Source of the DNA: Mytilus edulis
Lineage: Eukaryota
Assembly (NCBI RefSeq): GCF_963676685.1
Contig: NC_092353.1
Span: 20,371,307-20,435,306, forward strand
Reading direction: 5' to 3'
DNA length: 64,000 nucleotides
Below the pieces are notes generated by a model. It had not been told where the DNA came from. It worked only from the letters and a program-made list of their open reading frames with translations, and ran no database searches. Position numbers and translations under genes: made by a program. Shown here piece after piece: positions 25,737 through 62,098 of the stretch. Within the stretch, counting starts at the first letter, position 1. The number at the start of each line of letters is the position of its first letter.

Positions 25737-28700
25737 TTGTGTCATGGATGGATATCCCATATCCTTTGTTTTGTCTATTAGGAATGTACTTGTGACATGG
25801 ATGGATAGACCATATCCTTTGTTTTGTCTATTAGGAATGTGTCATGGATGGATACCCCATATCCTTTGTATTGTCTATTAGGAATGTACTTGTGTCATGG
25901 ATGGATACCCCATATCCTTTGTTTTGTCTATTAGGAATGTGCTTGTGTCATGGATGGATACCCCATATCCTTTGTTTTGTCTATTAGGAATGTGCTTGTG
26001 TCATGGATGGATACCCCATATCCTTTGTTTTGTCTATTAGGAATGTACTTGTGACATGGATGGATACCCCATATCCTTTGTTTTGTCTATTAGGAATGTG
26101 CTTGTGTCATGGATAGATACCCCATATCCTTTGTTTTGTCTATTAGGAATGTACTTGTGTCATGGATGGATACCCCATATCCTTTGTTTTGTCTATTAGG
26201 AATGTGCTTGTGTCATGGATGGATACCCCATATCCTTTGTTTTGTCTATTAGGAATGTACTTGTGACATGGATGGATACCCCATATCCTTTGTATTGTCT
26301 ATTAGGAATGTACTTGTGTCATGTATGGATATCCCATATCCTTTGTATTGTCTATTAGGAATGTGCTTGTGTCATGTATGGATACCCCATATCCTTTGTT
26401 TTGTCTATTAGGAATGTACTTGTGTCATGGATGGATATCCCATATCCTTTGTATTGTCTATTAGGAATGTGCTTGTGTCATGGATGGATACCCCATATCC
26501 TTTTTTTGTCTATTAGGAATGTACTTGTGTCATGGATGGATATCCCATATCCTTTGTATTGTCTATTAGGAATGTGCTTGTGTCATGGATGGATACCCCA
26601 TATCCTTTGTTTTGTCTATTAGGAATGTACTTGTGTCATGGATGGATATCCCATATCCTTTGTATTGTCTATTAGGAATGTGCTTGTGTCATGGATGGAT
26701 ACCCCATATCCTTTGTTTTGTCTATTAGGAATGTGCTTGTGTCATGGATGGATAGCCCATATCCTTTGTATTGTCTATTAGGAATGTACTTGTGTCATGG
26801 ATGGATAGCCCATATCATTTGTTTTGTCTATTAGGAATGTACTTGTGACATGGATGGATAGACCATATCCTTTGTTTTGTCTATTAGGAATGTGTCATGG
26901 ATGGATACCCCATATCATTTGTATTGTCTATTAGGAATGTACTTGTGACATGGATGGATACCCCATATCATTTGTATTGTCTATTAGGAATGTACTTGTG
27001 TCATGGATGGATATCCCATATCATTTGTATTGTCTATTAGGAATGTACTTGTGACATGGATGGATAGACCATATCCTTTGTATTGTCTATTAGGAATGTA
27101 CTTGTGACATGGATGGATACCCCATATCATTTGTTTTGTCTATTAGGAATGTACTTGTGACATGGATGGATACCCCATATCATTTGTATTGTCTATTAGG
27201 AATGTACTTGTGACATGGATGGATAGACCATATCCTTTGTATTGTCTATTAGGAATGTACTTGTGTCATGGATGGATAGCCCATATCCTTTGTTTTGTCT
27301 ATTAGGAATGTACTTGTGACATGGATGGATACCCCATATCCTTTGTTTTGTCTATTAGGAATGTACTTGTGACATGGATGGATACCCCATATCATTTGTT
27401 TTGTCTATTAGAAATGTACTTGTGACATGGATGGATAGACCATATCCTTTGTTTTGTCTATTAGGAATGTGTCATGGATGGATACCCCATATCATTTGTA
27501 TTGTCTATTAGGAATGTACTTGTGACATGGATGGATACCCCATATCATTTGTATTGTCTATTAGGAATGTACTTGTGTCATGGATGGATACCCCATATCA
27601 TTTGTATTGTCTATTAGGAATGTACTTGTGACATGGATGGATACCCCATATCCTTTGTTTTGTCTATTAGGAATGTACTTGTGTCATGGATGGATACCCC
27701 ATATCATTTGTATTGTCTATTAGGAATGTACTTGTGACATGGATAGATACCCCATATCCTTTGTTTTGTCTATTAGGAATGTACTTGTGTCATGGATGGA
27801 TACCCCATATCATTTGTATTGTCTATTAGGAATGTACTTGTGTCATGGATGGATAGCCCATATCGTTTGTATTGTCTATTAGGAATGTACTTGTGTCATG
27901 TATGGATATCCCATATCCTTTGTATTGTCTATTAGGAATGTACTTGTGTCATGGATGGATATCCCATATCATTTGTATTGTCTATTAGGAATGTGCTTGT
28001 GACATGGATGGATACCCCATATCCTTTGTATTGTCTATTAGGAATGTGCTTGTGTCATGGATGGATTTCCATATCCTTTGTTTTGTCTATTAGGAATGTG
28101 CTTGTGACATGGATGGATATCCCATATCCTTTGTTTTGTCTATTAGGAATGTACTTGTGACATGGATGGATACCCCATATCATTCGTATTGTCTATTAGG
28201 AATGTACTTGTGACATGGATGGATACCCCATATCCTTTGTTTTGTCTATTAGGAATGTGTCATGGATGGATGTCCCATATCCTTTGTTTTGTCTATTAGG
28301 AATGTACTTGTGTCATGGATGGATACCCCATATCCTTTGTTTTGTCTATTAGGAATGTGTCATGGATGGATATCCCATATCCTTTGTTTTGTCTATTAGG
28401 AATGTGCTTGTGTCATGGATGGATACCCCATATCCTTTGTTTTGTCTATTAGGAATGTGCTTGTGACATGGATGGATACCCCATATCATTTGTTTTGTCT
28501 ATTAGGAATGTGCTTGTGACATGGATGGATACCCCATATCCTTTGTTTTGTCTATTAGGAATGTGCTTGTGACATGGATGGATACCCCATATCCTTTGTA
28601 TTGTCAATTAGGAATGTACTTGTGACATGGATGGATACCCCATATCCTTTGTTTTGTCTTTTAGGAATGTGCTTGTGTCATGGATGGATACCCCATATTA

Positions 28701-31073
28701 TTTGTTTTGTCTATTAGGAATGTACTTGTGACATGGATGGATACCCCATATCATTTGTTTTGTCTATTAGGAATGTGCTTGTGTCATGGATGGATAGCCC
28801 ATATCATTTGTTTTGTCTATTAGGAATGTACTTGTGACATGGATGGATACCCCATATCATTTGTATTGTCTATTAGGAATGTACTTGTGACATGGATGGA
28901 TACCCCATATCATTCGTATTGTCTATTAGGAATGTGCTTGTGTCATGGATGGATACCCCATATCCTTTGTATTGTCTATTAGGAATGTACTTGTGTCATG
29001 GATGGATAGCCCATATCATTTGTATTGTCTATTAGGAATGTACTTGTGACATGGATGGATATCCCATATCCTTTGTTTTGTCTATTAGGAATGTGCTTGT
29101 GACATGGATGGATACCCCATATCCTTTGTTTTGTCTATTAGGAATGTGTCATGGATGGATATCCCATATCCTTTGTTTTGTCTATTAGGAATGTACTTGT
29201 GTCATGGATGGATAGCCCATATCCTTTGTATTGTCTATTAGGAATGTACTTGTGTCATGGATGGATAGCCCATATCCTTTGTTTTGTCTATTAGGAATGT
29301 ACTTGTGACATGGATGGATACCCCATATCCTTTGTATTGTCTATTAGGAATGTACTTGTGTCATGGATGGATAGCCCATATCCTTTGTATTGTCTATTAG
29401 GAATGTACTTGTGACATGGATGGATACCCCATATCATTTGTATTGTCTATTAGGAATGTACTTGTGTCATGGATGGATAGCCCATATCATTTGTATTGTC
29501 TATTAGGAATGTACTTGTGACATGGATGGATAGCCCATATCATTTGTATTGTCTATTAGGAATGTACTTGTGTCATGGATAGATAGCCCATATCATTTGT
29601 ATTGTCTATTAGGAATGTACTTGTGACATGGATGGATACCCCATATCCTTTGTTTTGTCTATTAGGAATGTGCTTGTGACATGGATGGATACCCCATATC
29701 ATTTGTTTTGTCTATTAGGAATGTGCTTGTGACATGGATGGATAGCCCATATCATTTGTATTGTCTATTAGGAATGTACTTGTGTCATGGATAGATACCC
29801 CATATCCTTTGTTTTGTCTATTAGGAATGTACTTGTGTCATGGATGGATAGCCCATATCCTTTGTATTGTCTATTAGGAATGTACTTGTGACATGGATGG
29901 ATACCCCATATCATTTGTTTTGTCTATTAGGAATGTACTTGTGACATGGATGGATACCCCATATCCTTTGTTTTGTCTATTAGGAATGTACTTGTGACAT
30001 GGATGGATACCCCATATCCTTTGTTTTGTCTATTAGGAATGTACTTGTGTCATGGATGGATAGCCCATATCCTTTGTATTGTCTATTAGGAATGTACTTG
30101 TGTCATGGATGGATACCCCATATCCTTTGTTTTGTCTATTAGGAATGTGCTTGTGACATGGATGGATACCCCATATCCTTTGTATTGTCTATTAGGAATG
30201 TACTTGTGACATGGATGGATACCCCATATCCTTTGTTTTGTCTTTTAGGAATGTGCTTGTGTCATGGATGGATACCCCATATCATTTGTTTTGTCTATTA
30301 GGAATGTACTTGTGACATGGATGGATACCCCATATCATTTGTTTTGTCTATTAGGAATGTGCTTGTGTCATGGATGGATAGCCCATATCATTTGTTTTGT
30401 CTATTAGGAATGTACTTGTGACATGGATGGATAGACCATATCCTTTGTTTTGTCTATTAGGAATGTGTCATGGATGGATACCCCATATCATTTGTATTGT
30501 CTATTAGGAATGTACTAGTGACATGGATGGATATCCCATATCATTTGTATTGTCTATTAGGAATGTACTTGTGACATGGATGGATAGACCATATCCTTTG
30601 TATTGTCTATTAGGAATGTGCTTGTGTCATGGATGGATAGCCCATATCCTTTGTTTTGTCTATTAGGAATGTGCTTGTGTCATGGATGGATATCCCATAT
30701 CCTTTGTATTGTCTATTAGGAATGTACTTGTGACATGGATGGATACCCCATATCATTTGTATTGTCTATTAGGAATGTACTTGTGTCATGGATGGATAGC
30801 CCATATCATTTGTTTTGTCTATTAGGAATGTACTTGTGTCATGGATGGATAGCCCATATCCTTTGTATTGTCTATTAGGAATGTACTTGTGTCATGGATG
30901 GATACCCCATATCCTTTGTATTGTCTATTAGGAATGTACTTGTGTCATGGATGGATAGCCCATATCCTTTGTATTGTCTATTAGGAATGTACTTGTGTCA
31001 TGGATGGATACCCCATATCCTTTGTATTGTCTATTAGGAATGTACTTGTGACATGGATGGATACCCCATATTA
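25737..31073. repeat. Satellite array: about 100 tandem copies of a 53-bp unit (GGATGGATACCCCATATCCTTTGTTTTGTCTATTAGGAATGTACTTGTGTCAT), with 47-bp deletion variants
   Basis: Strict 53-bp periodicity over 5.3 kb. Variant positions recur (ACCCC/AGCCC/ATCCC/AGACC, TCCTTT/TCATTT, GTTTTG/GTATTG, TACTTGTGA/TGCTTGTGT). Lies wholly inside the intron between PARP4-like exons 11 and 12. Confidence 0.95.
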
Positions 31074-32659: not shown

Positions 32660-33572
32660 CTGAAATAAAAAAGGGGAAGTAAATCAAAATCATTATCATA
32701 TTTCACTTATTTGATGATCAATTACTGATAAGTTGTAAATCCTGAACTGACCAGAAATAAACTTAATAGCTATACTACCCCTAAAAAACAAGCAAAATAC
32801 AACATATTGCCATTAATTTCTCAATGGCAGCTGATTCAAAGAATACAAATTGAAAAAAAATATCCATTGAGAAATGACTGGATGTAGAACATTTTTTTCA
32901 AACTTTTTCAGATGGGTGTCTTTCTGACACTATATAAATACATAAATCTTGTGGTACCATTAAAGCTTAACTACTTATATACAAGTAATAAAATTATTGA
33001 CTTTGATGTTTTCTCTTTAAGATTTTTATTAAATATTAACGTCCAAAAACACAATGACCAAAGAAAAAGACATCTAGAGGTGACTTTTAATCAGTATGAT
33101 AATCTAGAAATTGATACAAACATAAATCTGTTATTTCTTGGTAATCTCCTGCAATCAGTTGTTGGAGGAAAACTAAGGATTCATTTTAATTGTTTTGAAC
33201 CCATACATCATGATTTAATAAAGACCTAATTAATCAGGTTTTTGATTCTAAATATGTCCTAGAGATGACAATTACATATACTATAGAAGATTTGATTTGA
33301 TTTAATTTCTTGTGTTTAAATTCCACTTTTTAGCACCACTTTATGGCTATTTGGTAGCAGTTAGGAAATCTGACAATTCTAGTCAATTAAGATTTGAGTC
33401 AAGTGCACCTGCAGGAGCTACTAAGACCACTTGGCCTCTCCATCATAGAAGACAACAACCAGGTTTTATTGCACCCAAATTTCATTGATTACCATTGATA
33501 TATAAAAATACATTAAAATGTTATTGAATCATCATCAACAACAAAATAATGTATGATATCAAAAATACAAAC

Positions 33573-33733
33573 TGTTTGAGAGACTGTATAATGTGTTCCT
33601 TGATCAGTTTATATTCTGTATCTGTAATCTGTAAACCATCAAGTCTACATCGTAATGCTTTATACTTGGCCTCGGTACTACTTCTGGTCGACCAGTTTGT
33701 AGACTCACTCACAGCTACCATATCTTTAATCAT
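33573..33733 (-). CDS. PARP4: PARP4-like exon 8: end of the PARP regulatory (helical) domain (MIKDMVAVSESTNWSTRSSTEAKYKALRCRLDGLQITDTEYKLIKEHIIQSLKQ)
   Basis: Acceptor ATTTCAG at 33734-33739. The donor was placed at a weak GTTTGT site to keep phase with exon 9, so the 3' boundary is uncertain by a few nt. AKYKALRC motif as in the vertebrate PARP4 regulatory domain. Confidence 0.65.
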
Positions 33734-34052
33734 CTGAAATACATAATCTTAAAATACATACATCATGTCAAAAACATACACTAAAAATTTAAAGTCAGGA
33801 AACTAGTGATTTACCTCCTTTTGTAATAGGGAAATGATAAAAAGAAACATCTAATTTTGTAATAGAGCATTTCTTTACTCAGACTTACAAAATCTTCCTT
33901 CAAAATGTGTTTTTATTTTGTCCTGACATTTCTATATACAAGAACAATAAAGGTCACTAATTGTAATGGAAAATGAGTGAAGAAAGTTTTTCTGTATGAA
34001 TATTAACTAACATGACTCTTTTCTGTGGAAGTGTTTGGTTTTATGTGACATA

Positions 34053-34218
34053 ATTTTATATCATATATATTTTTACTTACCAGTCAAGGAATATACATAA
34101 GGATTATCTCCCTTACAACGTTCTCATAACTCGCAACACCTGGATGATTTCAAACATCTATCTAACATTGATCATCCGGGTGAATGCCTCCTCAGTTTAT
34201 CTTTCGGCGGCAACAAAA
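34053..34218 (+). repeat. DIRS-like element, left ITR (inner about 150 bp identical to the right ITR in inverse orientation; outer about 15 bp unique)
   Basis: TTTTTACTTACCAGTCAAGGAATATACATAAGGATTATCTCCC...CCTCAGTTTATC is the reverse complement of 39296-39447. Confidence 0.85.
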
Positions 34219-34312
34219 TAAGACGTTCTCACTTTGAGACTTTCTATTATAGTCTCGTCGTTGCAATTTTTATTTATGTACGTTTAATATTATCGTCCGC
34301 TCATATTGGACG

Positions 34313-35974
34313 ATGGCTGAAGAATATAGACACTCACTGACTGACGCAAATGCTGATTCAGATAGTGCAGGTGAAACGCCAACGGGTGATTTTCTCGTGA
34401 AAAAGATGGCGAGGACAACAAAAGACGCTTCTTCAAAGAAAAAGAAACGTGTGTCAAAGACGGCTGAACTTGAGAATAAGTTAAACAGTATGGAAGACAG
34501 GTTTGATAAGAAAATGGATATGTTATTTGCTGTTATGAACAAGTCATGTGCTACTATAGGTAGTTCGACTGTTGCACAGGTTTCTCAATCTGGTGGTTTA
34601 GCCACGCAGAGAGAACAAAGTTCGGATAACGTCCCAAGTACAGGGGAGCGTAGACCGGTAATTTCTTTGAATGCAAATCTTGATGAGGACTTGGGAAGTC
34701 CTAGAATCATCAGAAATATTGATTTTGACAATAGGTCAGAAATTTCTCTTCATATAGACAGTCGTGAAAAGGCTGATTTACTTGGTTTATGTTCATCAGA
34801 GGATGAATATTCTCGTGGCCTCAGTAGTCCTGTTTATTCTCAGGCTGGCAATAAATCTAGAAATGTTGAAAGATTTAGTCAATATCTACAAACTCAACCT
34901 ACTATTAGTAACAATGTTGAAAGTCAGTCAAATCAGAGACTAACAAGTAACATTGATAATAATAACAATAAAACTGTAGACAAGCAGTCAGATAATTTAA
35001 ATTTATTGTCTAAACTTTTCAAGGAAGATATTCCTTCAGAATCTTCTGATAATTCTGGTGGCTTGATCATTGATGAGGCACAGGTTAGAATTCTAGAACG
35101 TTCCTGGAGAACAAAAAATCCAGAGAAACTTACAGCTTATAAAGATGAATACCGTAGTTGTTTTCCGGTTAATGATAAATCTAAAAGCTTTTTGCAAGTA
35201 CCCAGTTTGGATGATTTATTAGAACCAATGATAAGAACTGTTCATGGTACAAATAGTGTTAAGTCATGGGACAAACATAAGCAGTTGGTTACTCAACCTT
35301 TAAAACAGATAGAGAATCTAGCCTATCAAGGGCAGGTGGCTTCACGTATGGGTATTATATCAGTGTTGTATATGCAACAAACATTAGGAACCTTATTAGA
35401 GAGGGTTGAAAATGAAAATGTTAGTGATGAAACTTGTCAAATGGTGAAGGACTTGTTTGCAATTTCGACAAAGTCTCTTGATCAGGTAGGACGCACAGGT
35501 GCGTTTAACCATATGATACGCAGGAAGGCTGCAGCTACTGAGTCTGGTTTAAATAACTTGAAAGATATACAGGCTAAAGTTTTGTATTTACCTCTTTCGA
35601 ATGAAGGTGTATTTGGTAAAGGTTTGGAAGACAAACTTGAGAAACGTAAAGAACAACGTGAGCAACTAGACGATCTGTTACCAGAGTATAAAAACAATAA
35701 TAAGAGAAAGTTTGAATCTACTCAGGTGCGTCAAGATTGGCAAAATAAAGCTCCTAGATATAGTTCTAACAATAGTTCTACTCATGTTAATTATAACAAT
35801 GCTAATTCAGCTGATAAACGTTCAGGTTTTAGTTATAATAAATCTTCTGTGAGATCTGCTCCTAGGAAGTTCCAGAAAGACAATAAAGCTGATGACTTTG
35901 GGAAAAAAGATAAAGAAAAGAAAGCAGGTGGCAACTGGAATTCTTTTCGGATCCCAAAGAAAAACAGTAGCTGA
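34313..35974 (+). CDS. DIRS-like ORF1 (gag-like, 553 aa; acidic N-terminus, basic, Ser/Asn-rich C-terminus)
   Basis: Long intact ORF immediately after the left ITR. Low-complexity, charged composition typical of DIRS gag-like ORF1. Overlaps ORF2 by about 80 nt in a different frame. Confidence 0.6.
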   Translation: MAEEYRHSLTDANADSDSAGETPTGDFLVKKMARTTKDASSKKKKRVSKTAELENKLNSMEDRFDKKMDMLFAVMNKSCATIGSSTVAQVSQSGGLATQREQSSDNVPSTGERRPVISLNANLDEDLGSPRIIRNIDFDNRSEISLHIDSREKADLLGLCSSEDEYSRGLSSPVYSQAGNKSRNVERFSQYLQTQPTISNNVESQSNQRLTSNIDNNNNKTVDKQSDNLNLLSKLFKEDIPSESSDNSGGLIIDEAQVRILERSWRTKNPEKLTAYKDEYRSCFPVNDKSKSFLQVPSLDDLLEPMIRTVHGTNSVKSWDKHKQLVTQPLKQIENLAYQGQVASRMGIISVLYMQQTLGTLLERVENENVSDETCQMVKDLFAISTKSLDQVGRTGAFNHMIRRKAAATESGLNNLKDIQAKVLYLPLSNEGVFGKGLEDKLEKRKEQREQLDDLLPEYKNNNKRKFESTQVRQDWQNKAPRYSSNNSSTHVNYNNANSADKRSGFSYNKSSVRSAPRKFQKDNKADDFGKKDKEKKAGGNWNSFRIPKKNSS

Positions 35975-38042
35975 CTCAGAGTTAAAGGTAATAATTTATC
36001 AGAATCAGGCCGAGATACCAGTTGGGGGTCGTCTAAGATTTTTTCGAGACAATTGGGAAAAAATAACAGACGATCAATGGGTCTTGTCAGTAATAGCAGA
36101 GGGTTACAAACTAGAGTTTCTAGAAATGCCATTTGGGACAGGCATACGGAAAACCTCTGTGTCTTTAAAAGACTCGGATATTTTAATCCAAGAAATAAAT
36201 ACTCTTATAGAAAAAGATGCTATAGAACCTGTTCGCCAGCAAGATGCAGCAACAGGTTTCTACAGTACGTTTTTTCTAGTCCCCAAAAAGAACGGGACAA
36301 TGAGACCAGTAATAAATCTCAGACCCCTCAACAGGTATCTCAAGAAAATACATTTCAAAATGGACACTCTCACAAAAGTATTAAACTTAGTAAAAATAGG
36401 AGACTGGGCCATTTCTCTGGATCTAAGCGATGCTTATTTACACATCCCAATTTTTCAGAAGCATCCCAAGTTTCTCAGATTTTCGGTTCAGAACCGGTGT
36501 TATCAGTGGAAAGTTCTTTGTTTCGGACCAACTTCGGCTCCGAGAGTCTTTACAAAAATGGTTTCCGTAGTAGCGGCTTTTTTGAGAACTCAAAATGTAA
36601 GACTAGTAGTATATCTAGACGATTGGCTAGTAGTCAATCAAAGCAAGAATCAATTATATCAAGATCGAAAGAAATGTCTCGATCTCCTAAATTCACTAGG
36701 TTTTCTCATCAACAGAGAAAAATCAAGTCTAGTGCCAACTCAAAACTTGATATACTTAGGGGGGCAGTTTCATTTGGACAAGGGACTTGTTTGCCCAACT
36801 CAGGAAAGAATAGACAAATTGAATATGGCAATACTAATTCTTTCATCAGGGAATGCAGTGTCAGCATTTCACTTCCTACAATTACTAGGCATAATGGCAT
36901 CTTGCATAGAGTTAATTCCGAATGCACGCTTGTTCATGAGACCGGTTCAACTACATCTCCTCTCATTTTGGAGACCAAGTTGTCAGGATCTTTCCATAAA
37001 GATCCCAGTTACACCACATCTGAAATCACATCTCAGTTGGTGGAAAGATTCAGCAAACACGCTGAGAGGCCAATATTTTCAACTGGCTCAAACCTCTGTA
37101 ACCATAACGACAGATGCTTCGAAAACCGGGTATGGGGGTTTTATGAACAATCAAATTTTTCAAGGGGAATGGTCAGAAATGCAGAGCAAGAAACATATAA
37201 ATTCCCTAGAATTGGAAGCAGTGTTTTTAACGCTGAAACACTTCCTAAATCAGTTGAAAGGTCAATATGTTCTGATAAGATCGGACAATACCACAGTGGT
37301 CCAATATATAAACAAACAAGGGGGGACGAAATCGCCCACTCTTTGCTACCAAACATGGGATTTATGGAATCTTGCAATTCAAAACAATATTCGAATGAAG
37401 GCTGCTCATATAACAGGAAAATTGAACATTTTAGCAGACCAACTCAGTCGAACCAAAATTCAACATACAGAATGGTCTCTGAACAAACTTGTGGTTCAGA
37501 ATCTATTTCAAATTTGGGGAACTCCTCTCATAGATTTATTTGCCTCAATAGACAATCGTCAGACAGAAATTTTTTGTTCATGGATCCCACATCAGAAAGC
37601 CTTAGCTCTGGATGCTTTGACAATTTCATGGGAGAGAATGTACGCCTATGCTTATCCCCCAATTTGTCTGATCCCAAAAGTCTTGCAATATATGAGGCAG
37701 TACCAGTGTCAGATTTTGTTGATAGCTCCCCAATGGCCACGGAGACATTGGTACCCAGAGCTGCTACAATTATTGATAGCAGTCCCCATCAGGATACCAG
37801 TAATTCCGGAATTGTTATGTCAACCGAAAACTCGGATTTATCATCCCAATCCACAAGTTTTCAAGCTGACTGCATGGCTTCTATCAACGAACGGTTTACA
37901 ACAGAAGGCTTTTCTAAAGGGGTTAGAGAGTTACTCTCCGCCTCATGGCGAAAAGGTACTCAAAAAGATTACTGCTCAAAATTCAGAAGGTTCAATAGCT
38001 GGTGTAGTACAAGGAAAATTGATCCCTATAAAATATCTTTAA
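35892..38042 (+). CDS. DIRS-like ORF2: reverse transcriptase, RNase H and a C-terminal DIRS-type domain (716 aa)
   Basis: RT motifs PVINLRPLN, LDLSDAYLHIP and VVYLDDWLV (YxDD box). RNase H motif ITTDASKTGYGG...HINSLELEAV. C-terminal conserved block LIDLFAS...AYAYPP...LLIAPQWP characteristic of DIRS elements. Confidence 0.85.
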   Translation: MTLGKKIKKRKQVATGILFGSQRKTVADSELKVIIYQNQAEIPVGGRLRFFRDNWEKITDDQWVLSVIAEGYKLEFLEMPFGTGIRKTSVSLKDSDILIQEINTLIEKDAIEPVRQQDAATGFYSTFFLVPKKNGTMRPVINLRPLNRYLKKIHFKMDTLTKVLNLVKIGDWAISLDLSDAYLHIPIFQKHPKFLRFSVQNRCYQWKVLCFGPTSAPRVFTKMVSVVAAFLRTQNVRLVVYLDDWLVVNQSKNQLYQDRKKCLDLLNSLGFLINREKSSLVPTQNLIYLGGQFHLDKGLVCPTQERIDKLNMAILILSSGNAVSAFHFLQLLGIMASCIELIPNARLFMRPVQLHLLSFWRPSCQDLSIKIPVTPHLKSHLSWWKDSANTLRGQYFQLAQTSVTITTDASKTGYGGFMNNQIFQGEWSEMQSKKHINSLELEAVFLTLKHFLNQLKGQYVLIRSDNTTVVQYINKQGGTKSPTLCYQTWDLWNLAIQNNIRMKAAHITGKLNILADQLSRTKIQHTEWSLNKLVVQNLFQIWGTPLIDLFASIDNRQTEIFCSWIPHQKALALDALTISWERMYAYAYPPICLIPKVLQYMRQYQCQILLIAPQWPRRHWYPELLQLLIAVPIRIPVIPELLCQPKTRIYHPNPQVFKLTAWLLSTNGLQQKAFLKGLESYSPPHGEKVLKKITAQNSEGSIAGVVQGKLIPIKYL

Positions 38043-38875
38043 GTCAGATAGCTGATTTTTTATCATATTTATTTGATAGTGGTTTGCAATACAGAACAAT
38101 TGCAGGGTATCGCTCAATGTTGTCCACGGTATTACCTCCAATAGATAATTTCCAAATTGGACAACATCCTAAAATAATTCGATTGATTAAAGGTGTTTTC
38201 AATACAAGACCTCCAGTTGCAAAACTATTACCTGAATGGGATTTGCACGTAGTATTAAGAATGTTAGAAAATAGTCCTTTTGACAATGTTGAACAAATGA
38301 CTTTAAAAGATTTGACTTTAAAAACTGTATTCTTAACTGCCATTACTACTTTCAGGAGATGTAGCGATCTGCAGGCACTAAGAACGGATGAAGGCTCCAT
38401 GAGAATACAGACTAAAGGAATTACGTTTATAAGACATGGCCTAGCCAAACAGGATAGGGAGAAACATTTTGGAGCAAAAATTTTCGTACCTACATACACT
38501 GAGAATACCTCTTTAGATCCACGGAAAAGTCTGTTACAATATTTAGATAAAACAAAACCGTTGCGTAAAAAATTACAACAGGACCAAAGAGGAAAATTAT
38601 TTTTAGCTTTATGTGAACCTCACAAACCAGTTACCTCTCAGACAATTTCACATTGGATTGTTCAAATTATTAAACAGGCTTATTCTGATTTTGAATATCC
38701 AGGGAAAGGGAAAATACATGCGCATTCTACAAGAGCTATTGGCCCAACTTGGGCATTCTTTAAAGGAGCATCTATCAATTCGATCTTAGAATCTGCAGAT
38801 TGGAGTTCAGAATCTACCTTTAGTAGATTTTATTTGCGTGAATTAGATGTAAATGTGTTACAGAAAATAGACTAA
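37733..38875 (+). CDS. DIRS-like ORF3: tyrosine recombinase (C-terminal about 380 aa of the 940-aa open frame 36053-38875, which overlaps ORF2 in another frame)
   Basis: N-terminal core-binding-like region (LLSASWRKGTQKDYCSKFRRFNSWC). Catalytic-domain motifs: R in TTFRRCSDLQAL, HAHSTRA (H-x-x-R) and the terminal SESTFSRFYLRE (catalytic Tyr). Confidence 0.75.
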   Translation: MATETLVPRAATIIDSSPHQDTSNSGIVMSTENSDLSSQSTSFQADCMASINERFTTEGFSKGVRELLSASWRKGTQKDYCSKFRRFNSWCSTRKIDPYKISLSQIADFLSYLFDSGLQYRTIAGYRSMLSTVLPPIDNFQIGQHPKIIRLIKGVFNTRPPVAKLLPEWDLHVVLRMLENSPFDNVEQMTLKDLTLKTVFLTAITTFRRCSDLQALRTDEGSMRIQTKGITFIRHGLAKQDREKHFGAKIFVPTYTENTSLDPRKSLLQYLDKTKPLRKKLQQDQRGKLFLALCEPHKPVTSQTISHWIVQIIKQAYSDFEYPGKGKIHAHSTRAIGPTWAFFKGASINSILESADWSSESTFSRFYLRELDVNVLQKID

Positions 38876-39146
38876 GTTGATATTTTCGGCGAGTTGCACA
38901 GTATGTTTTTGTTATTCATTAAAATGTTAGTGGTGGAAGCATTTTAAATGGTGGAAGTATTTTATATGTTTTTAAATATGAACATGAACTACATTTCAAC
39001 TTATGATGAAGTTTGAAATGACAAAGAATCACAGAGAAGTTTTGCTGTTATTAGATGTGTACATGTGTTGTAGAAAGTCTCTTCAGGTGAGATAATTTAT
39101 TTATAACACTCCTCCTAAGGTTCAGACTGCTTTGAAATCAGTAGTA

Positions 39147-39254
39147 ATCCTTATGTATATTCCTTGACTGGTAAGTAAAAATATATATGATATAAAATTG
39201 AGAATTTGTTATCAAGTTCTAATTTTATGAATTATTTTTACTTACCAGTCAAGG
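39147..39254 (+). repeat. DIRS-like internal complementary region (ICR)
   Basis: ATCCTTATGTATATTCCTTGACTGGTAAGTAAAAATATATATGATATAAAAT is the reverse complement of the left terminus 34053-34105. TGAGAATTTGTTATCAAGTTCTAATTTTATGAATTATTTTTACTTACCAGTCAAGG is the reverse complement of the right terminus 39428-39483. The two halves abut with AAATT microhomology. Confidence 0.85.
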
Positions 39255-39291
39255 CTCCCACCACCTCCCCAGTTATAAATAATTTTCGGTA

Positions 39292-39485
39292 AAAGGGAAT
39301 ATTTTGTTCCCGCCGATAAACTGAGGAGGCATTCACCCGGATGATCAATGTTAGATAGATGTTTGAAATCATCCAGGTGTTGCGAGTTATGAGAACGTTG
39401 TAAGGGAGATAATCCTTATGTATATTCCTTGACTGGTAAGTAAAAATAATTCATAAAATTAGAACTTGATAACAAATTCTCAATT
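39292..39485 (-). repeat. DIRS-like element, right ITR (inner about 150 bp identical to the left ITR, plus an about 38-bp unique outer extension)
   Basis: See the left ITR. One 4-bp indel relative to the left copy (TTTCGGCGGCAAC vs CGGCGGGAAC). Confidence 0.85.
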
Positions 39486-39742
39486 TGGAGTCAATAATGG
39501 GTTTGCTAGGCATATAGTTTATGTCAGTGCGTTCAGCCAAAGGATGAATATTCTAATGGTGATAAATTCTATGTGACTGCTTTGTAAGTGTTTTTAAAGG
39601 ATAAAATTTAATATATTTCTATAGGCAGGTTTTGATTATGTTCAAAGATTCAAGGATCCACTTAACCCATTAAAAGTTGCATGAGAAGTCAGAAAAGAGT
39701 TAAATAGTATTTCTGGTAATTGAAATGGATCAAACATATTAC

Positions 39743-39910
39743 CTGACATATATCTTGTTTCTTTGATAGCCATGCTCTCCTTTGTGATTTGACTGGTTGA
39801 GTTTTGTTTTTGTGTGGTAATGTTTCATTGAATTCTTTAAACAACTGTTCTACTTTTAAGTCATCCTTGCAATCCTTTATCTTCAACAGAATAGCTTCTG
39901 CTTTCTCTAT
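39743..39910 (-). CDS. PARP4: PARP4-like exon 7: PARP regulatory helical domain (IEKAEAILLKIKDCKDDLKVEQLFKEFNETLPHKNKTQPVKSQRRAWLSKKQDICQ)
   Basis: Acceptor TATTATAG, donor GTAATA, phase 0/0. F-x-x-LPH motif of the PARP regulatory domain (PARP1 FYTLIPHDFG). Joins exon 8 to give …KQDICQ|MIKDMVAV…, comparable to PARP1 …SVQAKVEMLDNLLDIEVA…. Confidence 0.7.
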
Positions 39911-52125: not shown

Positions 52126-54066
52126 CTATAAGACAACAAATTTTACATAAAATTCATGATCTTCATTATTCGTCATCCAAATAAATTTTTTAGGATTTTG
52201 TAATTGGGTAAAATTAGGACAAATAGCATTAATAAGATCATAACGTTCAACTTTATACTTTGTACATGTTAGTAAAAAATGGTTCTCATCTTCTACCTTG
52301 CCAGATGTGCAATGAACACACAATCTATTTTGCCTGATAATACCTTGACATCTTCCCAACTCTATTTGAAGTCTATGAGCTGATATTCTGAATCTGGTGA
52401 AAATTCTCCTCTGCCCAAAATCTTTTAAAATATTCAAATAATTTTCAAATCCAAAATTTTGTTTAAACTTGAAAAAAAAGTATGTACACAGTTTGCCATC
52501 TGATAATGATGGGGTTTTTTTTTGCCAACGATTAATATAATGAATTTTCATATATTTTTTACATGTCTTCTAAAAACTATTTGTTTTCATTCACCTTAAG
52601 CATGTTAAGTCAGTATGGTTATCAAAAATTCTTTTTTTCTGTATATAAACAGAGCCATACCAAGAAGGATGTTTATTTTCGTCCATTTTCATACAACTCT
52701 ATGGAAGTTAAATAGGCATCTTTTAGAATTGGAAATCGATTATCTAAATTTTCTAAACAGTGCCAATATTTAAGCATTGAACTGACGATATTGAAATGTG
52801 TGGTTAATCTGCCAAGTTATGACAAGGAGGCAAAATGTGTACTCTTTTTCCCACAACCTAAAACAAATTTACATAATTTAACATGCATTTCTTCACATTT
52901 AACATGTTTAAGTCTTTTATAAATTTCATTTGAAGGAAAAATCAGGGTTTTTTCAATTTTGTTGTAAAGGGATTAAAATAACCCAAAATTTCACAACCAT
53001 ATAATAATATTGGCATAATAGAATGATCGAATACATGTAATGAGATTTTAGGTGAAGGACAGTGAGAAATAAATTCCTTGCACAGTTTAAAATAAGCTTT
53101 TAGACCCTTCTGATAAAGTTCATTTGGAGCATAGCAGAAAGGAGATGTCTGCCTGCCTTATTGAATATAAGTACTTTGGTTTCAGATAAATTTACAGGAA
53201 GACACCACTGTTTTGCAAAACTTATCTAACATGTCTAAATTATCTAGTTTTTGTTGAAAACCACGCGATGAAGAAGAGAGCAGAAAAATATCATCTGCAT
53301 ACATCAAACAATGTATAGGCCGAGAGTTTAGTATAATTGGATCTGATGTTTGTATCAGTAATGAAGGAAGGTCATTAATAAAAATTTTAAACAAGTTAGG
53401 ACTTAGGTTGTCGCATTGCTTAACTCCCAATTTACTATCAAACATTTCAGTGCGAGCAGTGTTACTTGTTTTTATACAAGATTTACTTACAGAATACATA
53501 TTCTTAATAACATTATAAAATTTAGTACCAACCCCTATTTCTAAGAGTTTAAGTCTTTAATAATCCTGTATGAATTACAGTGTCAACAGCCTTTCTTAAA
53601 TCAACAAAGCAGACAAACACTCGATCTATCATCCTTATCATATGTGAACAATATTTTTCAATAATGCATTTTAATATAAATATATGATCAGATGTTCTAG
53701 TCTTTTTTGTGAAACCAATCTGAGAGTCATCTATTAGATTATGCTTTATTAAAAAATTATCCAATCTAGAGTTTAATATATGCAATTGAATAATTGGTGA
53801 TTGTCAGGCCTCTATATATATAAATATAGTATTTGGCCACTTTTAAAAATGTTGTTGCTAATATGATCTAATCCAGGAGCTTTATCCCTTTTAATCTTAG
53901 CAGAATATATTTCTGAGTCCTTTATTGGAAAATCTAGATCATTGAAACATTTATTTTTTTCAGTATCTTCTAGCTTTTTATCAAGTTCTTTTAAACGAGA
54001 GTCCCCTGTCCTCAGTTCAATAGACTCATGAGACTGTGTTAAAAGGGATCCTAGCTTTATATGCAT
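52126..54066 (-). pseudogene. Degenerate non-LTR (LINE-type) retrotransposon ORF2 remnant: RT motif 0 through the C-terminal zinc-binding region, broken by frameshifts and stops
   Basis: Minus-strand ORF fragments in order: KAPGLDHISNNIF (RT motif 0, 53812-54066); GFTKKTRTSDH…VFVCFVDLRKAVDTVIHTGLL (motifs 1-2, 53549-53785); GVKQCDNLSPNLF…LMYADDIFLLSSS (motifs 3-5 with YADD, 53182-53499); FRISAHRLQIELGRC…CVHCTSGKVEDENHFLLTC (C-terminal zinc-binding region, 52126-52551). Confidence 0.75.
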
Positions 54067-55207
54067 GTGTTATCTTCGGTTGAGTATATGTTATTTTATC
54101 TATGTCATATAAATTTATAAAGTGCATATTCTCATTTATCAAAAAATAAAATAAACTTTTCTATTATTATGGTTTCTATTACAATACAAAAAGAAATGAA
54201 TGTGATCTTCAATTTGTTTGCAGTTTTTACATAATCTTTTACAAGAAGGCACATACTAGGGAAATAATTTAAAATCTAAACATATTTTATACAATAATTT
54301 CATAAACTTTTTTTTTTATTGTGTATATACATTGTATATAGATAAAACATGGTTTTGATCTAGCAATATATATATATATAAACTGGGAACAGTATATCAT
54401 AAACATGGTTAATATATATGTTCCTGATATAAACGAGTCTAAATTGAAAACTACGTTCAAACCTATGGATAAAAACCGCAATTTTTATACGTGTGAATGT
54501 AAAACAAATTTCGTTGTAGAATGGTCTAAATACAGCACAAACAACATTTTCCAAAAGACCAAAAAAGTGAAAAAAGTATATTTAAACAAAACGCATTTGA
54601 CTAATATATATACTGTATTTAGACCTACTACAACGAAACTTGTTTTACATGCACACGTATAAAAATTGCGGTTTTTATTCAACGCAATCATAGGTTTGAA
54701 CGTAGTTTTCAATTTAGACGTGTATATATATATTCGACCTTTTAGTCAAATGCGTTTTGTTTAAATATACTTTTTCACTTTTTTGGTCTTTTGGTCGGTT
54801 TATCATTAGTATTCGGAGAGACCGAAGCATGACCAACGGTGGTCTTTAGCAGGGTTGTTGCTGCTGTGTAGGTAGTTTCGTCACATGTTGGTTCGCGAGG
54901 CTGAGAAACAGTAGTTGTACCTTCTGTGTTTGTCAAATGTGTATCGGTAATATTACCAATGGTCCTAGTGGTTATACCAGCAGTATTAAATATCGAGGTA
55001 AGTTAGATGGTTTTTGCAGCTGTTATACTAGTTTCGCAAGTTGTTTTGTCTGTAATCGTAGTATCATCTGTTGTAAATCTGATCGTCTGAATGTCAATTA
55101 TGAATGTAGACATTTTTGTTGCTGTTTCCGAGCTAGCTATTAATTCTGTCGTTACCGTCGATTTATTATTAAATAATTATCAGTGATAGTACCAATGGTC
55201 CTTGGGG

Positions 55208-55648
55208 TTATGCCAACAGTATTAGATATCGGGGTAAGTTGGATGGGTTTTTTTCAGCTTTTACAGTAGCTTCGCTAGTTGTTGTGTATGTCATCGTAGT
55301 ATCATCTGTTGTAAAGCCGGTCGTTGGAGTGTCATATATGAATGTAGACGGTTTTGTTTGAGTTTCCGAGCTAGCTATGATTTCCGATGGTTTATCATTA
55401 GTAATCGGAGAGACAGAAGCTTGACCAGCGGTGGTCTTTACCAGGGTTGTTACTGCTGTGTAAGTTGTTTCGTCAGATATTGGTCCATGAGTCACAGAAA
55501 CAGTAGCTGTACCTTTAGTGGTTGTTACATGTTTCTCGCTGATAGAACCAATGGTCCTAGTGGTTAAGCCAACAATATTAGATATCGAGGTTAGTTGGAT
55601 GGTTTTTGAGGTTGTGTCAGTAGGGTCACTAGTTGTTTTGTCTGTCAT
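55208..55648 (-). CDS. Mucin-like Thr/Ser-rich tandem-repeat gene: 3' ORF segment (146 aa), separated from the next segment by a 1-bp homopolymer indel
   Basis: Same 123-aa repeat consensus as the upstream segments. Ends where a T7 run (GGGTTTTTTTCAGC, near 55255) shifts the frame relative to sister repeats. Confidence 0.5.
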   Translation of the reverse strand: MTDKTTSDPTDTTSKTIQLTSISNIVGLTTRTIGSISEKHVTTTKGTATVSVTHGPISDETTYTAVTTLVKTTAGQASVSPITNDKPSEIIASSETQTKPSTFIYDTPTTGFTTDDTTMTYTTTSEATVKAEKNPSNLPRYLILLA

Positions 55649-55991
55649 CGTAGTAGCATATGTTGTAAAGCCGATCGTTTGAGTGTCATATATGAATGTA
55701 GATGTTTGTGTTGTCGTTTTCGAGCTTGCTATGGTTTCCGTCGTTTCCGTCGGTTTATCATTAGTAATTAGAGAGACCGAAGCTTGATCAGCAGTGGTCT
55801 TTAGCAGGGTTGTTGCTGCTGTGTAAGTTGTTTCGTCAGATATTGGTCCATGAATCTCAGAAACAGTAGTTGTACCTTGTGTGCTTGTTAAATAATTATC
55901 GGTGATAGTACCAATGTTCCTTGTAATTATGCCGACAGTATTAGATATCGAGGTAAGTTGGATGGTTTTGGCGGGTGTGTCAGTAGCGTCA

Positions 55992-57794
55992 CTAGTTGTT
56001 TTTTTCTATCATCGTAGTATCATCTGTTTTAAAGCCGATCGTTTGAGTGTTAGATATGGATGTAGACGTTTTTGTTGGCGTTTTCGAGCTAGATATTGTT
56101 TTCGTCGTTTCCGTCGGTTTATCATTAGTAATCGGAGAGACCGAAGCTTGATCAGCGGTGGTCTTTAGCAGAGTTGTTGCTGCTGTGTGAGTTGATTCGT
56201 CAGATATTGGTCCATGAATCTCAGAAACAGAAGTTGTACCTTGTGTGTTTGTTAAATAATTATCGGTGATACTAGTAGTACCAATGTTCCTTGTGGTTGT
56301 GCCAACAGTATTAGACATCGAGGTAAGTTGGATGGTTTTGGCGGGTGTGTCAGTAGCGTTACTAGTTGTTTTTTCTATCATCGTAGTATCATCTGTTTTA
56401 AAGCCGATCGTTTGAGTGTCAGATATGGATGTAGACGTTTTTGTTGGCGTTTTCGAGCTAGCTATGGTTTCCGTCGTTTCCGTCGGTTTATTAATAGTAA
56501 TCGGAGATACCGAAGCTTGATCAGCGGTGGTCTTTAGCAGGGTTATTGCTGCTGTGTAAGTTGTTTCGTCAGATATCGGTCCATGAATCTCAGAAACAGA
56601 AGTTGTACCTTGTGTGTTTGTTAAATAATTATCGGTGATACTAGTAGTACCAATGTTCCTTGTGGTTGTGCCAACAGTATTAGACATCGATGTAAGTTGG
56701 ATGGTTTTGGCGGGTGTGTCAGTAGCGTCACTAGTTGTTTTTTCTATCATCGTAGTATCATCTGTTTTAAAGCCGATCGTTTGAGTGTCAGATATGGATG
56801 TAGACGTTTTTGTTGGCGTTTTCGAGCTAGCTATGGTTTCCGTCGTTTCCGTCGGTTTATTAATAGTAATTGGAGATACCGAAGCTTGATCAGCGGTGGT
56901 CTTTAGCAGAGTTGTTGCTGCTGTGTGAGTTGATTCGTCAGATATTGGTCCATGAATCTCAGAAACAGAAGTTGTACCTTGTGTGTTTGTTAAATAATTA
57001 TCGGTGATACTAGTAGTACCAATGTTCCTTGTGGTTGTGCCAACAGTATTAGACATCGAGGTAAGTTGGATGGTTTTGGCGGGTGTGTCAGTAGCGTCAC
57101 TAGTTGTTTTTTCTATCATCGTAATATCATCTGTTTTAAAGCCGATCGTTTGAGTGTCAGATATGGATGTAGACGTTTTTGTTGGCGTTTTCGAGCTAGC
57201 TATGGTTTCCGTCGTTTCCGTCGGTTTATTAATAGTAATCGGAGATACCGAAGCTTGATCAGCGGTGGTCTTTAGCAGGGTTATTGCTGCTGTGTAAGTT
57301 GTTTCGTCAGATATCGGTCCATGAATCTCAGAAACAGAAGTTGTACCTTGTGTGTTTGTTAAATAATTATCGGTGATACTAGTAGTACCAATGTTCCTTG
57401 TGGTTGTGCCAACAGTATTAGACATCGATGTAAGTTGGATGGTTTTGGCGGGTGTGTCAGTAGCGTCACTAGTTGTTTTTTCTATCATCGTAGTATCATC
57501 TGTTTTAAAGCCGATCGTTTTAGTGTCAGATATGGATGTAGACGTTTTTGTTGGCGTTTTCGAGCTAGCTATGGTTTCCGTCGTTTCCGTCGGTTTATTA
57601 ATAGTAATCGGAGATACCGAAGCTTGATCAGCGGTGGTCTTTAGCAGGGTTGTTGCTGCTGTGTAAGTTGTTTCGTCAGATATTGGTTCATGAATCTCAG
57701 AAACAGAAGTTGTACCTTGTGTGTTTGTTAAATAATTATCGGTGATACTAGTAGTACCAATGTTCCTTGTGGTTGTGCCAACAGTATTAGACAT
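55992..57794 (-). CDS. Mucin-like gene: middle ORF segment (600 aa; about 5 near-identical 123-aa repeats with consensus …TTRNIGTTSITDNYLTNTQGTTSVSEIHGPISDETTYTAAITLLKTTADQASVSPITINKPTETTETIASSKTPTKTSTSISDTQTIGFKTDDTTMIEKTTSDATDTPAKTIQLTSMSNTVG…)
   Basis: Open frame kept across repeats whose length is a multiple of 3. About 40% Thr+Ser. Bounded at both ends (55991-56010 and 57843-57851) by T7 runs where sister repeats have T6. Confidence 0.55.
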   Translation of the reverse strand: MSNTVGTTTRNIGTTSITDNYLTNTQGTTSVSEIHEPISDETTYTAATTLLKTTADQASVSPITINKPTETTETIASSKTPTKTSTSISDTKTIGFKTDDTTMIEKTTSDATDTPAKTIQLTSMSNTVGTTTRNIGTTSITDNYLTNTQGTTSVSEIHGPISDETTYTAAITLLKTTADQASVSPITINKPTETTETIASSKTPTKTSTSISDTQTIGFKTDDITMIEKTTSDATDTPAKTIQLTSMSNTVGTTTRNIGTTSITDNYLTNTQGTTSVSEIHGPISDESTHTAATTLLKTTADQASVSPITINKPTETTETIASSKTPTKTSTSISDTQTIGFKTDDTTMIEKTTSDATDTPAKTIQLTSMSNTVGTTTRNIGTTSITDNYLTNTQGTTSVSEIHGPISDETTYTAAITLLKTTADQASVSPITINKPTETTETIASSKTPTKTSTSISDTQTIGFKTDDTTMIEKTTSNATDTPAKTIQLTSMSNTVGTTTRNIGTTSITDNYLTNTQGTTSVSEIHGPISDESTHTAATTLLKTTADQASVSPITNDKPTETTKTISSSKTPTKTSTSISNTQTIGFKTDDTTMIEKNN

Positions 57795-57837
57795 CGATGT
57801 AAGTTGGATCGTTTTGGCGGGTGTGTCAGTAGCGTCA

Positions 57838-60800: not shown

Positions 60801-62098
60801 TCGAAGCTTGAGTGGTTGTTTTATATAACGTTGATGCTGATGTGCGAGTTACTTCGTCAGATGTTGACCCATGAGTTTCAAACACAGTTGTACTTTCGGC
60901 TTTTATCAACGGCTGTTGGGCAGAAGTACCAACAGTGTTAGTGGTAGTGCCACCAGTTGTCGATATAGAAGTAAGTTTTATGGTGTCTGCGGATGTGACA
61001 GTACTAGTATCTTTATCAGTTATTGCGTCTGTAAAAGTACTACCATCTGTTGTAAAACCAATCGTTTGACTCTCAGAAATAAACGCCGGTGTTTTCGTTT
61101 GCGTTGCTGATCTAGCTATAGTGTCTGTCATTTCATTCTGTTCATCATAATTAATCGGAGAGCTCGAAGCTTTAGCAGCAGTTGTCTCTAGCAATGTTGA
61201 AGTTGCTGTGTAAGTTGCTTCGTCGAATTTTGGTCCTTGTGTCTCAGAGGCAGTTGTACCTTCTGTGTTTGTCAATTGAATGTAAGCGGTAGTGCCAGAA
61301 GTATTATATATAGATGTAAGTTCAATGGTTTTGGCAGTTGTGACAGGAGCTTCATCAATCGTTAAAAAGCCAATCGTATGACTCTCAGAAATGAATGCTG
61401 ACGTTTTTATTGGGGTTACTGAGCTAACTATAGTGTTTGTAGTTTCCATCAGTCTAATATCAGTAATTAGAGAGACTGAAGCTTGCTCAGCTGTTGTGTC
61501 TAGCAATGTTGTTGCTACTTGAAGATTTGCATCATCAGATGTTCGTCTATGAGTCTCAGATACAGTAGTACCTTCTGTGTTTGTCAATAGAATATCATCA
61601 GTTTTGTCAATAGTCTTAGTGGTAATGCCAGTAGTACTATATTTAGAAATAAGTTCGATGTTTTCTGTCGCTGCGAAAGCATCTGTATCAATTGATGTGT
61701 CTGTCACAGTCGTATCATCTGTATTAGAGGCAATCGTCTGAATGTCAGAGAGGGATGTAAATGTTTTTGTTGGCGCCATAGAGCTAGCTATAGTGTCTGC
61801 AAATCCCATTGGTTGGTCATGAGTAATTGGAGAGACCGATGATTTATAAGCGGTTGTCTCTAGCAAAGTTGTTGCTGTTGTAGGAGTTGTTTTGTAAGAT
61901 TTTGATCCATGGGTCTCAGAGACAATTGTACTTTTGGTTGTTGTTAACGGTATCCCAGCAGTAGTATCAAACGTGACGATTTTAGCTGCTTCAGTTGTTG
62001 TGGCTATTCGAGAAATTGATGTTAGTGTTTTCATTTGCGTTGTTGAAGTACCAGTATTGAGAAATTTTGTATTGTCTTTTGTTGTAGTGGTAATAGGT
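57838..62098 (-). CDS. Mucin-like gene: 5' ORF segment (about 1420 aa of diverged Thr/Ser-rich 123-aa repeats). The segment probably begins at a splice acceptor (TTTTTCAG at 62099-62106), not at a start codon.
   Basis: A 4.3-kb open frame through diverged repeats argues for selection on coding capacity. There is no ATG at the 5' end: the ORF opens at GTG/…RKKHIVKCIYSFSEPITTTTK with a strong acceptor immediately upstream. The true 5' exon(s) were not identified. Confidence 0.55.

Follow-up and report, generated by a model that had tools for sequence, protein, structure and literature searches.

We report here that a stretch of Mytilus edulis DNA (64,000 nucleotides (nt); contig NC_092353.1 of assembly GCF_963676685.1, positions 20,371,307 to 20,435,306 of the forward strand), referred to below as the window, very probably harbours an autonomous DIRS1-like retrotransposon of Mytilus mussels, a recent antisense insertion in a small intron of a PARP4-like gene. 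We assign this interpretation a probability of about 0.93. DIRS elements form the order of retrotransposons that code for a tyrosine recombinase (YR). The element lies on the plus strand at positions 34053-39485, counted from the first letter of the window, measures 5,433 bp and has ATT at each end. The interpretation is carried by its inverted terminal repeats (ITRs) and internal complementary region (ICR), by three uninterrupted open reading frames (ORFs) with intact motifs, and by near-identical copies at other loci. A complete DIRS1-like element had been described here in an earlier note made from the letters alone; its parts were found again at essentially unchanged coordinates, with the features that define the group.

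Termini and repeat structure

Repeats were searched for between positions 33500 and 40000. The search returned two ITR arms, 34068-34201 and 39315-39448 (conserved part; 134 nt, 100% complementary). When aligned with BLAST, the pairing continued inwards to 34220 on the left and to 39300 on the right, giving 153 aligned positions (34068-34220 versus 39300-39448) with one mismatch and one gap, in agreement with the earlier description of ITRs of about 150 bp that are alike apart from one indel. The left terminus (34053-34106, plus strand) starts with ATT and has its exact reverse complement in positions 39145-39198, the left half of the ICR. Its outermost part (34053-34067), termed 'divergent ITR' in the wording of PMC3266345, pairs partially with 39449-39463 and perfectly with the ICR. 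The outer right terminus (39449-39485, plus strand) is composed of a divergent ITR (about 39449-39462) and a right extension (about 39463-39485, AACTTGATAACAAATTCTCAATT) that ends in ATT. It is complementary to the right half of the ICR only, and the right extension has no counterpart in the left terminus.

The ICR (39145-39254, plus strand, 110 nt) strings together the reverse complements of the left end and the right end, in that order. Positions 39145-39199 are the exact reverse complement of 34052-34106 (55 nt), and positions 39195-39254 that of 39427-39486 (60 nt); since these matches are perfect over 55 and 60 nt, they cannot be put down to chance. Within the ATT...ATT bounds, the left half covers 39145-39198 (54 nt) and the right half, the exact reverse complement of 39427-39485, covers 39196-39254 (59 nt). 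The halves share AAT at 39196-39198, the published 'circular junction', and the overlap comes to 5 nt (AAATT, 39195-39199) once the flanking A and T are counted. The order of the two reverse complements had been given correctly before, whereas the extent of the ICR had to be revised from 108 nt starting at 39147 to 110 nt starting at 39145. The joined ends are encoded as proposed, but by halves that overlap by 3-5 nt rather than merely abut.

A 22-nt core, TATTTTTACTTACCAGTCAAGG, is common to both ITRs and both ICR halves. It is found four times, at 34068-34089 and 39233-39254 in this orientation and at 39162-39183 and 39427-39448 as its reverse complement, and corresponds to the short block shared by ITRs and ICR halves in PMC3266345. 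The ITR and ICR/terminus pairs of the window copy showed 0 differences in 249 nt in the repeat search, and the complementarity of the ITRs was reproduced with BLAST. The same succession of left terminus, left ICR half, right ICR half and right terminus, with an AAATT junction, was present in six relatives whose pol proteins are 45-67% identical. Joining of the right end to the left end gives the predicted circle junction ...AACAAATTCTCAATTTTATATCATATAT..., a sequence for which DNA or RNA reads can be screened directly; the predicted empty site at the locus is GTGACATAATTTGGAGTC.

Coding capacity

Three ORFs follow one another in DIRS order and, as noted previously, all of them are uninterrupted, with the recombinase ORF overlapping pol in another frame. 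The pol ORF (35892-38042, plus strand, 716 residues) lies in the +1 frame relative to ORF1. It comprises a reverse transcriptase (RT; about 36279-36761, YLDD at 36612-36623), an RNase H (about 37095-37454, TDAS at 37110-37121) and a methyltransferase-fold domain (37479-38039, DLFAS at 37533-37547, YAYPP at 37647-37661). The proposed RT was borne out by a Pfam match to RVT_1 (E 9.4e-22), and residues 101-521, which take in both the RT and the RNase H domain, matched the Ty3 RT-RNase H in the PDB (4ol8, 7q5b; E about 1e-15). The motifs YLDD, TDAS, LE..AV, DN and H..G..N..D are kept across 91 pol homologues; in their alignment, conservation is at least 90% for the motifs of the RT, the RNase H and the C-terminal part (DLFA…N, YA.PP, LIAP.WPR). 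No meaningful Pfam match to the C-terminal 187 residues was obtained at E-values up to 10. An AlphaFold2 model of this part (49-sequence alignment; predicted local distance difference test score (pLDDT) 89.4) has a class I methyltransferase fold, and on the strength of this predicted fold the domain is the 'MT' domain, a defining feature of DIRS1-like and PAT elements. The MT domain of such elements is regarded as an inactive adenine methylase (PMC3537659). Pfam searches of the element's ORFs gave no match to a protease or a DDE integrase (rve).

The recombinase ORF (35975-38875, plus strand) is in the frame of ORF1 and begins directly after the ORF1 TGA, with its first ATG at 36077. A SAM-like/core-binding domain (about 37940-38125) is followed by the catalytic domain (about 38306-38839), which contains R (38354), K (38447), HSTR (38723-38734), W (38801) and Y (38831), the catalytic tyrosine residing within SRFYL (38822-38836). 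R, K, HxxR, W and Y are invariant in the recombinases of relatives that are 38-62% identical. The earlier statement that YLDD, TDAS and HxxR…Y are intact was confirmed for each of these motifs. When a YR profile built from six elements was compared with the PDB, only Cre/Tre recombinases were matched (E 1.5e-3), with the HxxR, W and Y positions aligned. Judged from its sequence, the recombinase is Cre-like and takes the place of a DDE integrase.

ORF1 (34313-35974, plus strand, 553 residues) ends in TGA (35972-35974), with C as the next base. It is predicted to be mostly disordered, with a helical core at about residues 288-460, and its AlphaFold2 model is poor (pLDDT 53.5, helical core only). 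Searches with ORF1 gave nothing meaningful in Pfam at E-values up to 10, no PDB match with a 56-sequence profile, and no Foldseek match to the model below E 0.5; a CRISPR_Cse1 match (E 0.003) was set aside as chance. The second entry of the Foldseek list was the LAP2alpha dimerisation domain (E 0.64, not significant). This domain derives from the ORF1 of a vertebrate DIRS1 element, and no link to it was detectable at the sequence level. ORF1 has a family of homologues in bivalves. The term 'gag-like' used in the earlier note can be retained for position and size, and is no statement of homology, of which none was detectable in the Pfam, PDB profile and fold searches. The 'GAG' of DIRS elements is likewise assigned by position only in the literature (PMC4495291).

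Sister copies and insertion boundaries

The closest relatives of ORF1 are Mytilus proteins (M. edulis 96%, M. galloprovincialis 94%, M. coruscus 92% identity). The closest pol proteins also come from Mytilus, and more distant relatives were found in other bivalves. Contigs of three sequencing runs in Logan match the interior of the element at 99.5-99.8% identity and end at the repeats, as de Bruijn assembly predicts. A full-length copy in M. galloprovincialis (L009; UYJE01004430.1, GCA_900618805.1) is 99.9% identical over 4.46 kb, and has termini and an ICR identical to those of the window copy and unrelated flanks. A further copy (L010; UYJE01009314.1) is 96.9% identical and shares the right boundary, with many indels. 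Within the window, BLAST returned self-matches only and no second copy. Since near-identical copies reside at other loci with unrelated flanks, the family is multi-copy and has moved recently; the element is not a single diverged copy. In L009, ORF1 is broken by a nested 1,119-bp insertion (L009 positions 5786-6904) at the equivalent of window position 35034.

About five substitutions are private to the window copy when it is set against its sister copies, and its ORF1 has lost 9 nt in frame. Two of the substitutions alter pol (W82G, R192P), neither at a conserved position. The window copy looks competent, which on its sequence is plausible; the earlier phrase 'probably recently active' therefore stands for the family, with its 99.9% and 96.9% identical copies in unrelated flanks, and is reduced to plausibility for this copy. 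An intact, very young copy with sister copies provides mussel genomics with a candidate active tyrosine-recombinase retrotransposon.

The left boundary was set with the help of L009, whose flank differs from position 34052 outwards (T in L009 versus A in the window), copy identity stopping just outside ATT. On the right, copy identity stops after AATTT. On either side the element is flanked by ATT(T), and the junction that the ICR encodes contains a single ATT. No target-site duplication was detected in the flanks of three copies, in which nothing is repeated beyond (A)ATTT. ATT at the ends without a duplication fits recombination of a circle junction with an identical short target (PMC3266345). 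The stretch common to the ends and the ICR junction (34052-34056 and 39482-39486 in the window) is 5 nt long (AATTT) in the window copy and in loci L004 and L007, at least 5 nt in L005, L006 and L008, and 4 nt in L009. Going by these few sites, the target preference of the clade may be (A)ATTT, and hence wider than the bare trinucleotide; the 4-5 nt in common may reflect either a longer recombination core or such a preference. An 11-nt likeness between the flanks of the window copy and L009 was discarded as an alignment artefact.

Several DIRS1 pol/ORF1 proteins (P0002, P0023, P0061, P0213; P0065, P0068) are publicly filed as proteins of 'Candidatus Thiodiazotropha' metagenome-assembled genomes, labels that probably reflect contamination of the symbiont bins by the clam host. 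Two DIRS1 proteins have been named 'HigB toxin' by the Joint Genome Institute (JGI), which is a mis-annotation.

Insertion into a PARP4-like gene

ORF fragments and putative exons on the minus strand of the window encode, in this order, BRCT (46860-46675 and 44121-43684), PARP_reg, PARP catalytic (32706-31261) and VIT (23943-23644, E 4e-26) domains. The succession BRCT–PARP_reg–PARP–VIT is the architecture of PARP4 (vault PARP). The intron that accommodates the element is bordered by an upstream exon for the N-terminal part of the PARP regulatory domain (39692-39910, minus strand) and a downstream exon for its C-terminal part (33524-33748, minus strand), and hence splits this domain, with the element on the strand opposite the host gene. 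In a host protein spliced by hand from six putative exons, the PARP catalytic domain was matched with E 1.5e-24 and PARP_reg with E 2.6e-4, below its gathering score; the PARP_reg match runs across the junction of exons 39692-39910 and 33524-33748. The antisense position within an intron of a PARP4-like gene, as claimed previously, was thereby corroborated.

With splice sites picked by eye, the host intron (about 33734-39742) measures about 6 kb with the element and about 0.6 kb without it, which amounts to a roughly tenfold enlargement. Another intron of the PARP4-like gene, located between the PARP catalytic and VIT exons, is filled by a 53-bp tandem repeat (25737-31071, about 101 copies, 93% matches) with strong GC and AT skew.

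Alternative explanations

No result is at odds with the DIRS1-like class; several weigh against parts of the interpretation. The RNase H models on pol remained below the Pfam gathering scores. Phage_integrase matched the recombinase at E 1.1e-4 with 22.5 bits, below the cut-off of 27.1, and the SAM-like N-domains (E 3.9e-4 to 9e-4) were below their gathering scores as well. The RNase H and Phage_integrase matches expected from the earlier note are thus present but sub-threshold, and are backed by the matches to Ty3 and Cre. The methyltransferase-like domain has YAYPP in place of the canonical (D/N)PP(Y/F) motif, and no homology of ORF1 to any capsid, or to the LAP2alpha domain carried by the ORF1s of vertebrate DIRS1 elements, was detected in the Pfam, PDB profile and fold searches. 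Because of the private changes in pol and the deletion in ORF1, the competence of the window copy is plausible only. Finally, in Dictyostelium, the DNA copy was found to be mostly linear and single-stranded, junction PCR failed, and the circle was not directly demonstrated (PMC7192593).

The most serious of the other explanations is that the element, though structurally intact, is a dead or silenced relic of a family that is no longer mobile, its intactness reflecting young age only. The private changes of the window copy (W82G and R192P in pol, 9 nt lost from ORF1), the 1.1-kb insertion that disrupts L009, and the 3% divergence and many indels of L010 would all fit this scenario. On the other side stand three open ORFs in which every conserved motif is intact, the lack of any difference in the 249 nt of paired repeats, the 99.9% identity of copies at different loci, and the location of the private changes off conserved positions; taken together, they make a relic rather unlikely, if well worth keeping in mind. 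Co-option by the PARP4-like gene, for instance as antisense regulatory or exonised sequence, has far less to recommend it. The element does lie within a conserved gene whose intron it enlarged from about 0.6 to about 6 kb, and DIRS1 ORF1 has been domesticated in mammals (PMC4495291), but near-identity to copies elsewhere in the genome rules out locus-specific evolution, and on the minus strand no long ORF runs on from the host exons across the element. We regard co-option as highly improbable.

Membership in another YR class (Ngaro, PAT-like, VIPER or Crypton) is slightly less probable still. All of these have a YR, and Ngaro, PAT and VIPER also have RT/RNase H, yet the termini found here are inverted, without split direct repeats, and accompanied by an ICR, a repeat geometry that refutes such an assignment; moreover, the element has a methyltransferase-fold domain, missing in Ngaro and VIPER, and an RT, missing in Cryptons. 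The least credible explanation is that the ITRs and the ICR are artefacts of the assembly or come from a chimaera of two elements. Short-read Logan contigs do break exactly at the repeats, but the whole structure is present, with identical termini and ICR, in the independent M. galloprovincialis assembly (L009) and recurs in six diverged relatives from other assemblies, which leaves this explanation with a negligible probability. The interpretation as an autonomous, recently inserted DIRS1-like element was thus retained.

Comparison with known elements

The element is of a kind already known and ordinary for its class, a good specimen rather than a new element type, because every feature falls within the ranges given by Piednoël et al. 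2011 (PMC3266345), who describe exactly this architecture and tabulate 28 elements in their Table 3. Values inside these ranges include the length (5,433 bp), ATT/ATT/AAT, the lack of a left extension, the divergent ITR (about 15 nt), the conserved ITR (134 nt), the right extension (about 23 nt), the ICR halves (54 and 59 nt) and the shared block (22 nt). ATT/AAT is the commonest junction type and the one seen in molluscs (PMC3266345). In layout, the element resembles other metazoan DIRS1-like elements (among them LgDIRS2 of Lottia, SkoDIRS1 of Saccoglossus, BmDIRS1 of Bombyx; PMC3266345), which share a length of about 5-6 kb, ATT...ATT ends with an AAT junction, the lack of a left extension, a divergent ITR of about 15 nt, a conserved ITR of about 134-155 nt, a right extension of about 23-30 nt, ICR halves of about 40-67 nt, a short block present four times, YLDD and HSTR. 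The five gastropod elements of this survey lack a long pol/YR overlap, whereas the overlap is complete in the bivalve element of the window and its relatives. The clade of the window element further differs in sharing 4-5 nt at the junction ((A)ATTT), compared to the 3-bp 'circular junction' of the literature.

DIRS-1 of Dictyostelium discoideum, the founding member, resembles the mussel element in its three ORFs (positional gag, pol with RT, RNase H and MT-like domain, and YR), the long overlap of the YR ORF with pol, the non-identical ITRs, the right extension, and the ICR complementary to the adjoining outer ends (88 nt, 33+55, in DIRS-1; 110 nt, 54+59 with 3 nt shared, here). It differs in its much longer ITRs (about 300 versus about 150 nt) and in the junction (TAA versus AAT), the host here being an animal. 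DIRS-1 also shows nested insertion and a preference for centromeres, whereas the window element gives no evidence of such a preference.

Ty3/gypsy elements supply the closest solved RT-RNase H (Ty3, E 9e-16) and have the same gag-then-pol order, but they possess direct long terminal repeats, an aspartic protease and a DDE integrase, none of which was found here, whereas the window element has a YR and an ICR. PAT-like, Ngaro and VIPER elements combine RT/RNase H with a YR, and PAT elements also have an MT-like domain, which is missing from Ngaro and VIPER; the latter two usually lack ORF overlaps as well. In contrast to the ITRs and ICR found here, these groups are bounded by split direct repeats (A1-B1 ... 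A2-B2). No split direct repeats were found at the termini of the window element, the sole direct repeats being those that stem from the ICR/ITR geometry. Cryptons have a YR without an RT, whereas the RT of the window element is present and intact.

Proposed replication mechanism

The replication model for DIRS-1 reportedly goes back to Cappello et al. in 1985. The mechanism outlined here is taken from this model and from experiments in Dictyostelium; for the mussel element, the limits of transcription, the circularisation of the complementary DNA (cDNA) and the specificity of the recombinase are extrapolated from homology and anatomy. The transcript would begin within the left ITR and terminate within the right one, with the outermost ends missing from it. 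The element's own RT/RNase H would then copy the transcript into single-stranded cDNA, to whose termini the ICR, with the complements of the two missing ends next to each other, could anneal. Acting as template and splint, the ICR would allow the ends to be regenerated and the right end to be joined to the left end, after which the circle would be made double-stranded. The Cre-like YR is predicted to recombine ATT at the circle junction with ATT in the target (here A-ATT-T), which would leave ATT at both ends and no target-site duplication. In Dictyostelium, the ICR is essential for retrotransposition of DIRS-1 (PMC7192593).

Overlapping reading frames and possible recoding

The recombinase ORF, of roughly 960 codons, is in the same frame as ORF1 (position mod 3 = 2). 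From 34250 to 38873, this frame contains one stop, the TGA at 35972 followed by C, and pol is nested wholly within its span in the +1 frame. Over the 654 codons that overlap pol (to about 37939), the recombinase frame has 0 stops, compared to the 31-41 that synonymous or codon-order shuffling predicts (never fewer than 19 in 2,000 shuffles). The corresponding numbers for six relatives are 0-2 observed and 17-42 expected. Amino-acid conservation of the overprinted frame beyond what pol demands reached z 6.6-7.3 in the closer relatives and z 1.3-3.2 in the most distant ones. Stop avoidance was preferred as evidence because conservation in the distant relatives is weak and stops in the null bias the BLOSUM variant of the test. 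The overprinted N-terminal 591 residues gave nothing meaningful in Pfam at E-values up to 10. In the 2011 survey, long ORF overlaps are found in half of the elements and in 0/5 molluscan (gastropod) ones (PMC3266345).

A scan of metagenome contigs yielded 80 further DIRS1-like loci with 35-65% pol identity, which, combined with the earlier loci (L003-L091), formed 82 clusters at 80% pol identity. Nearly all of these have 0-1 stops in the recombinase frame within pol, the third frame having 18-87. An ORF of at least 900 nt lies directly upstream of the recombinase ORF in 39 clusters, in the same frame and with a single stop between the two; most of the other clusters are cut off by contig ends. 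This stop is TGA in 27/39 and TAG in 12/39 clusters and never TAA (0/39), whereas the pol and recombinase ORFs of the same elements end in TAA in 13/73 cases. The base after the ORF1 stop is C or G in 36 of the 39, and the first ATG of the recombinase frame lies 24-1,629 nt downstream of it. The pol frame opens 29-512 nt upstream of the ORF1 stop in all 39 clusters, and at least 13 clusters have no pol ATG until well within the conserved N-terminal region.

The exclusive use of TGA or TAG at the ORF1 stop, together with the frequent lack of a pol ATG, suggests that DIRS1-like elements, including that of the window, may use translational recoding from ORF1 to express the two downstream genes. 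We hold this view tentatively, at somewhat less than an even chance. Ribosomes that read through the ORF1 stop, which is of a leaky type, would yield the recombinase, and those that leave ORF1 by a +1 frameshift would yield pol. A speculative frameshift candidate is TTT CGG (35945-35950, plus strand), which lies in the ORF1/pol overlap and encodes Phe-Arg of the conserved SFRIP motif in the ORF1 tail. The same dipeptide is encoded by TTT-CGN or TTT-AGG in many elements (L003-L007, L012, L014, L029, L045, L047, L055, L059); the site could be +1 slippery (UUU to UUC before a rare Arg codon) or a mere conserved peptide motif. Termination would give Gag, a +1 frameshift (possibly at TTT-CGN) Gag-Pol, and readthrough Gag-X-recombinase, with X being a Ser-rich polypeptide of about 600 residues that is overprinted on all of pol and kept open by selection.

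Recoding is disfavoured by three observations. No consistent signal of RNA structure 3' of the ORF1 stop was obtained in eight elements (z −2.4 to +0.95). The lineages are related, and the counts from the 39 clusters are therefore not independent. Furthermore, the window element has ATGs for both pol (35892) and the recombinase frame (36077). The accessible DIRS literature, which does not include two classical reviews where the layout may have been noted earlier, contains no mention of it. If true, recoding would account for the way in which the proportions of Gag, Pol and recombinase are set in DIRS elements and for the gene-length overlap that half of them keep, and it would add a large case of overprinting. 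This architecture is one lead worth following and may carry more weight than the element itself.

Other features of the window

On the minus strand, positions 54778-62139 contain very long Thr/Ser-rich ORFs (265, 619 and 1,433 residues) without a Pfam match. They are made up of a 369-nt tandem repeat (about 10 copies at 55187-58818) and have the look of a mucin-type gene. A decayed RT of the non-LTR (long terminal repeat) type, spread over several ORFs, is found at 52129-54069 (minus strand; RVT_1 E 2e-9, YADD motif), and a similar C-terminal RT fragment at 10011-10502. Positions 1498-2314 are occupied by a 21-bp minisatellite (about 38 copies), whose minus strand reads as an (S/K)AGDVKS-like repeat.

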